Position numbers and translations under genes: made by a program
The notes under the pieces: model-generated
The model's database searches: none
Seen by the model: the letters and a program-made list of their open reading frames with translations, nothing else
Told to the model about the DNA's origin: nothing
Source of the DNA: Chrysomallon squamiferum
Lineage: Eukaryota > Animalia > Mollusca
Length of the DNA: 64,000 nt
Reading direction: 5' to 3'
Assembly (NCBI GenBank): GCA_012295275.1
Contig: CM022678.1
Span: forward strand, 2,666,001-2,730,000
Part shown: one piece after another, positions 9,301 through 12,300 of the stretch
Layout: every line of letters starts with the position of its first letter
Numbering within the stretch: position 1 is the first letter of the stretch

Positions 9301-12300
9301 GTATAAATTTGAAATTTTTACATATTTTTTTACAATTTAACATTTTATCAAGCAGTGTAAAATTATCAAATTTAAAAAGAGAGAACATATTTCACAGCCT
9401 GCATATTTAACATTTTATCAAGCAGTGTTAATTAAAATTTCAAGAAGAGACACAGCCTGCATATTTATGTTTTACCAAGCAGTGTTACATTTCAAGAAGA
9501 CACACACACACACACACACCAGACACACACACACACACACACACACACACACAGAGAGAGAGAGAGCATGCAGAAACGACACAGACCGAGCCATGCACTT
9601 TGACTTACAGCTGCTATGGAAGGTTTAGCACAGTCTCCCGCAGGTGGGTGAGTCACATCAGCACCGAGGAATATAATAGGCTCCTTAAACACTTGCGGAC
9701 TGAAAGTAAAATGCAGATTACTCTTTTCAGAATGAGCGAAATCTTTCACAATGCTGTGGGGCGGGGGGGCGCACACATACGAATTAGTGGTTTTGGGCTG
9801 TGGTGGGGTGGGGATGGGTGTGTCTGTGTGGGTATGAGAAGCTCACCCATGCTGCAGATTGTGTAAAAAAAAAAAAAAAAGAATAATAAAAAATAAAAAT
9901 AAAAGGTGGGTTAATATGCAGACAGAACGTTCGTAGATGAAGTTACATGCCATGCTGTAAGCTGATCGAAGGTTATCGTTGGTGTATTTAGATCTTCCAC
10001 GATTCAAACTGTGAGCTGCCGGATTCAGAACATCTGTTCCAGACCAATGCATTCATGGAGGTTTCAGAGAATATTCTACCATTGTTTTTAGGATTTTTGT
10101 TAATCTTATTGTGAAATTTTTATTATTAATACATTATAATTTTCTGTTTTGTTTTATAATTTTTAAAATTTCCGTTGAAAAAAAAAAAAATTCAAAATTT
10201 AAGAAGATTTATCGTAATATAAATGGAATAAAATGTGTTTACAATTTACAAGGAAAAAAAAAAAAAAAAAAAAAAATTAACTGAACATTATAATCTAATT
10301 ATTTTGTAACAAACGTACCAAAAAGAACAAATTTAACACATAAAGAAGTCAAACTTCGTTAGCATGAAGTGAAGTATACAGTGGTCTGGAACACGAGGTG
10401 CAACTCAGCGCGTGCAGAGACCCAGTCTGTACAAACTTACAGCAGCCACTGAAGGACGTCTGCGTTCACTTCCCTGAGGGTGGGTCACGCTGGCACCCAT
10501 AAAAATCAGTGGCTCTAGGAAAATTCTTGGCCTGCAAAATCATTCTCGTTCACAAACTGGTACGCAACAGTTTCACTTCTTATTTTAGATTTTGTGTTGA
10601 GTGATTATCTTAAAATGGTTTGAATTTTTAAAAATTAAGTTCTAATTTTAAAAAAATAAAAATAAAAATTCTTTTAAATTGTTATTTCAAATTAATAAGA
10701 TTTTTAATAACAATAATAAAAAGCTAGATCATATTTCAAGAATTTTTTTTTTTTTTTTTTGTAATGTTAATTTTTTAAAATAATAAATCCATCAAAAGTA
10801 ACATATCCATCACAACCTTCTGAATGAAAATATTAGTATCATTTCTATTATTGTTTTTCTAAATCTAACTTAACTCCTGTAAATAAGAACAGCAAGCACA
10901 ATCGTACTAATTTTGTTTAACTAATGCCTGGGGTATGCAAACTAAGAGCTTAGGAAAAGGGTAAAACGTTTCAGCTCTGTGTTTATTTAACACAACAAAT
11001 TATATTTTCAAAAAAAATCAAACAGCATGCACTTTCTCCACCTGTGAACACTTTATAACAAAATAAAGAAAAACAAGATTTAAAAACACTTCAATATCAT
11101 CTGTCATTTACTAAATAACAGACAATCTTGAATTAAATACTATAACTGCTATTTGTAACTTCATTTTGAAGGACAAAAACGCTAAGAAAATACATCGAAC
11201 AACTGAATAAATGTTTGATTAATTTTGTTTTACACTCTGAAAATATGAGACTGAATATTTCTCATTCCTTCCAGTATAAAATTAAAATCTTTCTGTATTA
11301 CACAAGTTAAAATAAACAAAATAGATAATACACAAGTCCACATGCTGAAAATGTATTAATTAATCAGAAAAATTTATTACACACCTTCTTTTGGGTATAA
11401 AAAACAGTAAACGGCAAATAATCAATAACAGTTTTATCTGATCTTAAGTTAAATGACAAGAATATTGGCAGGGATCTCACTGGAAAACTGTAAAATCACA
11501 TTACAAATGCTATATCAAAACACCAGCTGAACTCAGAAATGTATCAGCTCAAACCAAGTAGTATTATATTTCTACCCTTTTTATTTTACAAACATTCTTT
11601 AATCTAGCTTATTTTAAAAAATACTAATAAAACATTCAACAAAGCCTGTATTAATAATAAGACATTTAACAAAGCCTGTATTAATGATAACCAGTAGACT
11701 TGTTCTGATGTTCCACTTACCGTATACTAGGTAGGAGAATGCTGTTGATGCCGCCGAGTTTGACGTTGATTTTCAGACAGAGGTTTGACAGAGTCTGTGG
11801 TGAGGTTTTGTTTACATTCTTCTGCTGCACACACTGAGTGGCCAGGCCAAAGAGAATGTCGCCAACTCGTTTTACTTCAGCTGCAACACAAACAACTTCA
11901 GTCAGTTCTACAGGAAGAAATCACAGCCAGCTAACTAACACTCAGCAGCAGGATTAATATTAATTAACATCATCTCTTCACATTTTAATGTTTATTACTC
12001 TAGATAAGTTGACTAGCTGTTGTACTTTGTTGGGCTTTTTGCAGGTACTTTGAAAAATAATACAGCTTTTGATAAGGCTATCCCAGAGCAGTGGTTAGAA
12101 TTCGAAAAAGACTGATCCAGGAGATGAATTTTGTGAAACTGATGATCATCATCATAATAATCATAAGTAATAATAATAATAATAATAATAATAATAATAA
12201 TAATAACAACAGCAAAAAGAAATAACAATAACCGTACTATTAATAAATAAATATATAGATAATAATAATAATAATGAACAATCAGAAATGTTAATTTTAT

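Follow-up and report, generated by a model that had tools for sequence, protein, structure and literature searches.

When animal microRNA Argonautes slice, and when slicing is switched off, has usually been addressed via paralogues or engineered mutants. The paralogues are those of the human family, in which one microRNA Argonaute clade is reported to be split into a cutting AGO2 and the non-cutting side of AGO1, AGO3 and AGO4, a division like the one described here (PMC5714244). According to the same source, AGO3 demonstrates that a DEDH tetrad of catalytic residues is no guarantee of efficient slicing (PMC5714244). The mutant is AGO2 D597A, which concerns the same residue as the present locus and is the standard non-slicer. 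It is reported to retain microRNA maturation and, at 25 °C, to fail to unwind siRNA duplexes (PMC4627090). D597, the first residue of the tetrad, is described as coordinating Mg2+ at the scissile phosphate, and AGO2 residues 602-608 as making up that half of the central gate which PIWI contributes (PMC11893014). This loop blocks central pairing, with A603 and G604 in contact with guide base g12 (bioRxiv 10.1101/476960). The Argonaute tetrad and loops are also treated in PMC10772731.

In the present work, a microRNA-class Argonaute gene of Chrysomallon squamiferum was found to carry two versions of the exon that comprises D597. The splice choice between such versions is real and conserved in molluscs, while its function is what we infer from the residues concerned. 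From these residues it is likely that exon choice lets one gene produce two gene-silencing Argonautes, one that cuts and one that does not. The major isoform with a DEDH tetrad is predicted to slice, and the minor isoform with SEDH is predicted to repress without cutting and to possess a more basic gate. To this reading we assign a probability of roughly two thirds.

The Argonaute gene and its exon pair

The window, i.e. the whole stretch of 64,000 nucleotides that was analysed, comprises the entire Argonaute gene on the minus strand, from about 33612 to 3261. The gene product and the AGO2-like protein of Gigantopelta aegis are near-identical, with few residue differences. The exons of the window match the protein P0121 over almost its full length, and for P0006 six Ago Pfam domains were determined. 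The abalone orthologue aligns to human AGO2 residues 6-859 with 1506 bits. A domain order of N-L1-PAZ-L2-MID-PIWI that can be aligned end to end with human AGO1-4 places the gene in the miRNA class (AGO clade). Upstream of it, the window holds exons of a neighbouring gene (36361-47866, minus strand), the frames of which, as we take it, resemble NMD3. The exons around the first catalytic residue are as follows; the names 17a and 17b are those of the preliminary description, and a count including the optional 5' exon would give 18a and 18b.

11721..11880, minus strand: exon 16, upstream constitutive exon (end of MID and start of PIWI) with a phase-2 donor
10441..10531, minus strand: exon 17a, alternative PIWI exon of 91 nt in which the first catalytic position is Ser (codon 10491-10489)
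9609..9699, minus strand: exon 17b, PIWI exon of 91 nt that encodes the catalytic Asp (codon 9659-9657) and was observed spliced
8285..8479, minus strand: exon 18, downstream constitutive exon with the catalytic Glu (8410) and the second Asp (8314)
7102..7301, minus strand: constitutive exon with the catalytic His (7154)

Along the minus strand the order is exon 16, 17a, 17b and exon 18, separated by introns of 1189 nt (16-17a), 741 nt (17a-17b) and 1129 nt (17b-18). Exons 17a and 17b are homologous, stand in tandem between the same constitutive flanks and agree in length and phase (2/0); both their coordinates and their peptides match what the preliminary description had given. This extends to the identity of the peptides (16 of 30 residues), to the codons AGC in 17a and GAT in 17b, which differ in all three bases, and to the other tetrad residues, which lie intact in shared exons (E at 8410, D at 8314, H at 7154). 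A base-call error as the source of the Ser codon is rejected, since no base is common to the two codons. Altogether, 41 of the 90 coding bases differ between 17a and 17b (11 at the first codon position, 7 at the second and 23 at the third), and the synonymous sites are saturated. The likeness of 17a is not a matter of chance, because the protein of a relative matches it with E=1e-6 in a tblastn search within the 64-kb window.

Two statements of the preliminary description have to be narrowed. It had assigned strong splice sites to both exons, which holds for the AG in front of them and the GTAAGT behind them, but the acceptor of 17a is poor in pyrimidines, its fraction of 0.39 being the lowest among the 23 acceptors scored, tied with exon 18. 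It had also stated that the reading frame enforces exclusivity. When the exons are joined computationally, the frame stays open in 16-17a-18 and in 16-17b-18, and transcripts with both exons or with neither run into a stop within about 30 codons. The early stop is thus as proposed, but a frameshift does not pick the exon; it would eliminate the wrong products, presumably via nonsense-mediated decay.

Counted along the alignment to PDB 4OLA (residues 6-859), the exon corresponds to human AGO2 residues 584-613. The abalone Ser aligns to D597 of this structure, in agreement with the earlier assignment of the Asp of GADVTH to human AGO2 D597. Since D597 and the loop 602-608 both fall within 584-613, the catalytic residue and the gate are located on one exon. 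The 17b form comprises the complete DEDH tetrad (D 9659, E 8410, D 8314, H 7154). In the 17a form the tetrad is incomplete, with Ser at the D597 position (SEDH), and the gate loop is basic, Arg606 and Arg608 being common to 17a and abalone.

Beyond this pair, the gene comprises two further duplicated units, namely a pair in the L2 linker and two last exons.

15400..15522, minus strand: copy a of the second duplicated pair (L2 linker, behind helix 7), 123 nt
14785..14907, minus strand: copy b of the second duplicated pair, 123 nt
4720..4829, minus strand: alternative last exon, copy a
3261..3369, minus strand: alternative last exon, copy b

With 123 nt each, the two copies of the L2 pair keep the frame, and their spacer contains a predicted stem (15245-15272 with 15037-15064). 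In the majority of the snail and bivalve groups that were checked, the annotation contains two L2 versions. These groups include limpet, Aplysia, mussel and scallop, for which a single PIWI exon was seen. The alternative last exons are both used among the G. aegis isoforms (3 and 4 of 7), and two C-termini each were also found for Mercenaria, Dreissena and Mya. These exons alter a serine cluster in the loop at human 820-837, for which a control of target release has been reported (PMC11893014). Two further options of the gene in the window occur among the G. aegis isoforms: an alternative acceptor at about 22825-22850 (minus strand), which adds 5 residues where PAZ begins, and an optional exon of 13 residues near the N-terminus (29661-29699, minus strand).

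Distribution among relatives

The table of relatives, compiled from full-length homologues that protein searches and cluster look-ups had given, comprises 249 named proteins. They fall into 37 groups, of which 35 are molluscan. Entries from vertebrates and arthropods as well as unnamed and fragmentary ones were set aside, four large clusters are represented by 15 of their 33, 26, 26 and 32 members, and the second oyster locus by 15 of 38. Among the matches listed, an Asp-less segment was found in 34 of the 249 proteins and in 13 of the 35 mollusc groups. The comparison with relatives that the preliminary description had suggested thus turned out in favor of the exon, its Asp-less version being kept in 12 named mollusc genera. 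Ser occupies the site in abalone (Haliotis) and five caenogastropods (Pomacea, Littorina, Babylonia, Batillaria and Nucella) as well as in the bivalves Mya and Dreissena, and Asn occupies it in oysters (Saccostrea, Magallana, Crassostrea and Ostrea). None of the 34 Asp-less proteins has lost E, D or H, the remaining catalytic residues.

The isoforms of these species are database gene models. An isoform pair of equal length that differs only inside the 30 residues was present in 11 of the 12 groups compared, in which both versions are annotated as isoforms of one locus; the twelfth comprises no pair of equal length. In 10 of these 11 groups the pair swaps Asp for Ser or Asn. The models of Batillaria and Nucella have the two versions as tandem exons, in which the Ser copy precedes the Asp copy as it does in the window. 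The alternative version of Mercenaria retains Asp, and one model each from Mactra and Potamilus is similar to it. For limpets, heterobranchs, mussels, scallops and nemerteans, where gaps in the annotation are possible, no Asp-less version was found among the matches listed.

Direct searches with 17a gave the following picture. With its reading frame as query, there was no scoring protein among 7 candidates. The 30-residue peptide gave 12 matches among 1.84 billion representatives; the site holds Asp in 10 of them, Thr in 2 and Ser in none. A degenerate pattern of the Asp-less exon was found at 5 loci in metagenome contigs, none of them molluscan. One of the 5 is a chance match; the other four (L002-L005) are transcripts from a divergent arthropod-like Argonaute, 66-69% to Daphnia-type Ago1, which carries Thr at the D597 position, the residue being lost across this whole paralogue. 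P0228 and P0230 look similar to these four. In P0227 and P0414-P0422 (ENA/Logan frames), two tandem copies of the exon lie about 50 nt apart, both with Asp, which indicates that the exon has been duplicated in another lineage, too. The second AGO locus of oysters (P0286, P0390-P0403) showed the Asp version only, in 15 of 15 proteins among the matches listed, and one Tubulanus Argonaute (P0283) carries Ser at the second catalytic Asp.

Isoform use in C. squamiferum and G. aegis

Five public runs contain the stretch, and splicing was read from the contigs of four RNA runs of one study. In all four, exon 16 is joined to 17b (11721 to 9699), and the 17b contigs continue into exon 18, the sequence of which their loose end matches. 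In these four RNA samples, 17b is accordingly the predominant form. Exon 17a was covered in none of the four contig sets, all from one study; since contigs drop rare variants, this absence is not equivalent to silence. In Gigantopelta aegis, the nearest named relative, none of the 7 isoforms contains a 17a-type exon and all 7 use 17b.

Together, these observations are the chief evidence against a 17a isoform in this species. They could also originate from a switch that is real in molluscs, with 17a persisting in this lineage as a poison exon or a fading relic. The exon would then be rarely included, be under relaxed selection, or be used only together with 17b, leading to decay of the transcript. 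Both the lacking coverage and the G. aegis isoforms fit such a fate, as do the weak 17a acceptor and the divergence of the exon: with a length of 1.56, 17a is the longest branch of 39 rows and thus the most diverged copy, and it alters P602, G604, D605 and I611, which are invariant across the 15 other alternative exons. On the other hand, 17a keeps exactly 91 nt, an open frame and the GTAAGT donor, and its Ser597, Arg606 and Arg608 are common to the abalone exon. It groups with this exon in the tree (89/64), and with 19 of 30 residues identical the abalone exon is the best match of 17a. Moreover, contigs lose rare variants, and one contig of run X3 ends exactly at the donor of exon 16, which could reflect a second path or an unspliced read. 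Altogether, a relic or poison exon is considered unlikely, and a minor but functional Ser form is preferred.

Evolution of the exon pair

Position 606 is K or R in all 16 alternative exons and non-basic in all 18 canonical ones. Asp is absent from position 597 in 13 of the 16 alternative exons and retained in three (Mercenaria, Mactra, Potamilus); all 18 canonical exons have it. Mactra and Potamilus were labelled alternative by likeness alone, and without them the amounts are 14 of 14 for position 606 and 13 of 14 for position 597. Within this set of aligned exons, the more constant mark of the alternative version is the basic residue of the gate loop and not the loss of Asp.

In a tree from 30 columns, the split between alternative and canonical exons showed weak support (56/49) and occurred in 72% of the bootstrap trees, while none of 500 label shuffles was as clustered as the two sets. 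The accepted mollusc phylogeny serves here to place the duplication and the losses of Asp. The simplest reading would be one duplication before the split of snails and bivalves, followed by at least three separate losses of Asp; separate duplications would be the alternative. The loss looks recurrent because the alternative exon of some clams still encodes Asp.

The constancy of position 606 raises the question of whether selection acted on two shapes of the gate loop, with the loss of Asp being incidental, slicing unimportant and no functional switch present. A basic residue in 16 of 16 alternative exons, three of which keep Asp, would be expected in this case, and the tandem copies of the P0227 cluster likewise both carry Asp in 10 of 10 members. 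The loop is also described as touching guide base g12 and gating central pairing (bioRxiv 10.1101/476960). Nevertheless, the canonical exon comprises Asp in all 18 copies, and the alternative exon is fixed for Ser or Asn in whole clades with no drift, which makes selection on the loop alone distinctly improbable. An assembly artefact or a stray processed fragment in place of an exon is refuted by the homologues and of negligible probability, as the same exon pair occurs in the same order in independent assemblies, 41 of the 90 bases differ with a codon pattern, and contigs of the RNA runs match intron stretches between exon 16 and 17a.

Proposed mechanism and control of the exon choice

A choice between a cutting and a non-cutting form remains the preferred reading, and it can be described as follows. 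An old tandem duplication would have affected the exon at the first catalytic residue of the PIWI domain, and mutually exclusive splicing would yield mostly the Asp form (DEDH), with the Ser form (SEDH) as the minor product. The latter is expected to take up microRNAs and to silence targets by deadenylation, leaving perfectly paired targets and passenger strands uncut, and it may treat central and supplementary pairing differently. Transcripts with both exons or neither would be cleared by nonsense-mediated decay. The choice itself may be set by three elements, namely the weakness of the 17a acceptor, the TGCATG motifs, and an RNA duplex that the two donor regions could form. A wider version of this scheme is more tentative, and we rate it somewhat below even odds: in molluscs, with the siRNA-type Argonaute lost, the main miRNA Argonaute would be toggled between cutting and non-cutting by tissue-regulated exon choice, with a pair that predates the snail-bivalve split, first tuned the gate loop and then underwent at least three losses of Asp (gastropods, Myida, oysters).

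Two intronic regions provide leads for the control of the choice.

9566..9598, minus strand: intron behind the 17b donor, two TGCATG motifs and a duplex arm; a lead only
10376..10433, minus strand: intron that follows the 17a donor, its arms predicted to pair with 9577-9598 and 10035-10052; a lead only

TGCATG, which we take to be an RBFOX-type motif, occurs 11 times in the gene, and two of these lie within 40 nt behind the 17b donor, compared to an expectation of about 0.05 per 150 nt. The duplex between the donor flanks (10412-10433 with 9577-9598) was the best of 253 pairs, yet 140 of 2000 shuffles were as strong. For the L2 pair, no such duplex of the donor flanks was found (rank 245 of 253). 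The best intronic duplexes were no stronger than those of shuffled windows, and the inverted repeats in 8480-11720 are A/T runs (25 longest of 246). Docking-site and selector pairing of the Dscam, 14-3-3 or Mhc type is a conserved and covarying intronic pairing. Steric exclusion by a short spacer was also considered and is rejected, the spacer of 741 nt being too long; the threshold for simple steric exclusion lies below this length.

Implications and comparison with known systems

A natural pair of proteins that is identical except for 30 residues, which comprise the Asp and the gate loop, makes the question of when slicing is off testable by one splice junction, compared between tissues. In trochozoans the endo-siRNA machinery is reported to be lost (PMC11114477). 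Experimental RNAi in oysters, abalone and snails therefore probably proceeds via this Argonaute, and the share of the Asp-less isoform could set the efficiency of knock-down by tissue.

The alternative isoforms are present in public annotation, where they are uncommented, and the mollusc exon pair is apparently unpublished. No description of the arrangement was found in the full-text literature searched, which comprises a minority of the subscription journals, a frequent outlet of oyster and abalone immunology. In the available parts of four surveys of mollusc RNAi, exon choice is not mentioned (bioRxiv 10.64898/2026.07.10.737666, PMC11114477, PMC11353429, PMC4793324). One of them reports DEDH in all snail AGOs surveyed (bioRxiv 10.64898/2026.07.10.737666), and another collapsed the isoforms and kept the longest (PMC11114477). 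If only the longest isoform is considered, the catalytic state would be missed or misread.

Among the described systems, the splice variants Ago1A, Ago1B and Ago1C of shrimp also originate from one microRNA Argonaute and are reported to differ in PIWI and in antiviral role (PMC3510085). They result from an insertion of 81 nt and not from a duplicated, mutually exclusive exon, and the available part of that report does not mention the loss of a catalytic residue (PMC3510085). In its design, the locus resembles the selectivity-filter exons of NALCN in invertebrates including Lymnaea, where a mostly single-copy gene swaps a function-defining residue by alternative exons and vertebrates fix one state (PMC3557258). 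NALCN, however, concerns the filter of an ion channel with both forms abundant, whereas here the active site of a nuclease is concerned and the minor form was unseen in the contigs of this species. Compared to the laboratory mutant D597A, the change described here is a natural and conserved Ser or Asn that is delivered by splicing and accompanied by an altered loop 602-608. Vertebrate proteins named AGO1 keep the first tetrad Asp, which is lost in the mollusc alternative exon; the changes in vertebrate AGO1 are at other tetrad positions. While vertebrates distribute the cutting and non-cutting states across paralogues, the division here would be accomplished within one gene, by an exon choice that removes the first Asp of the tetrad.
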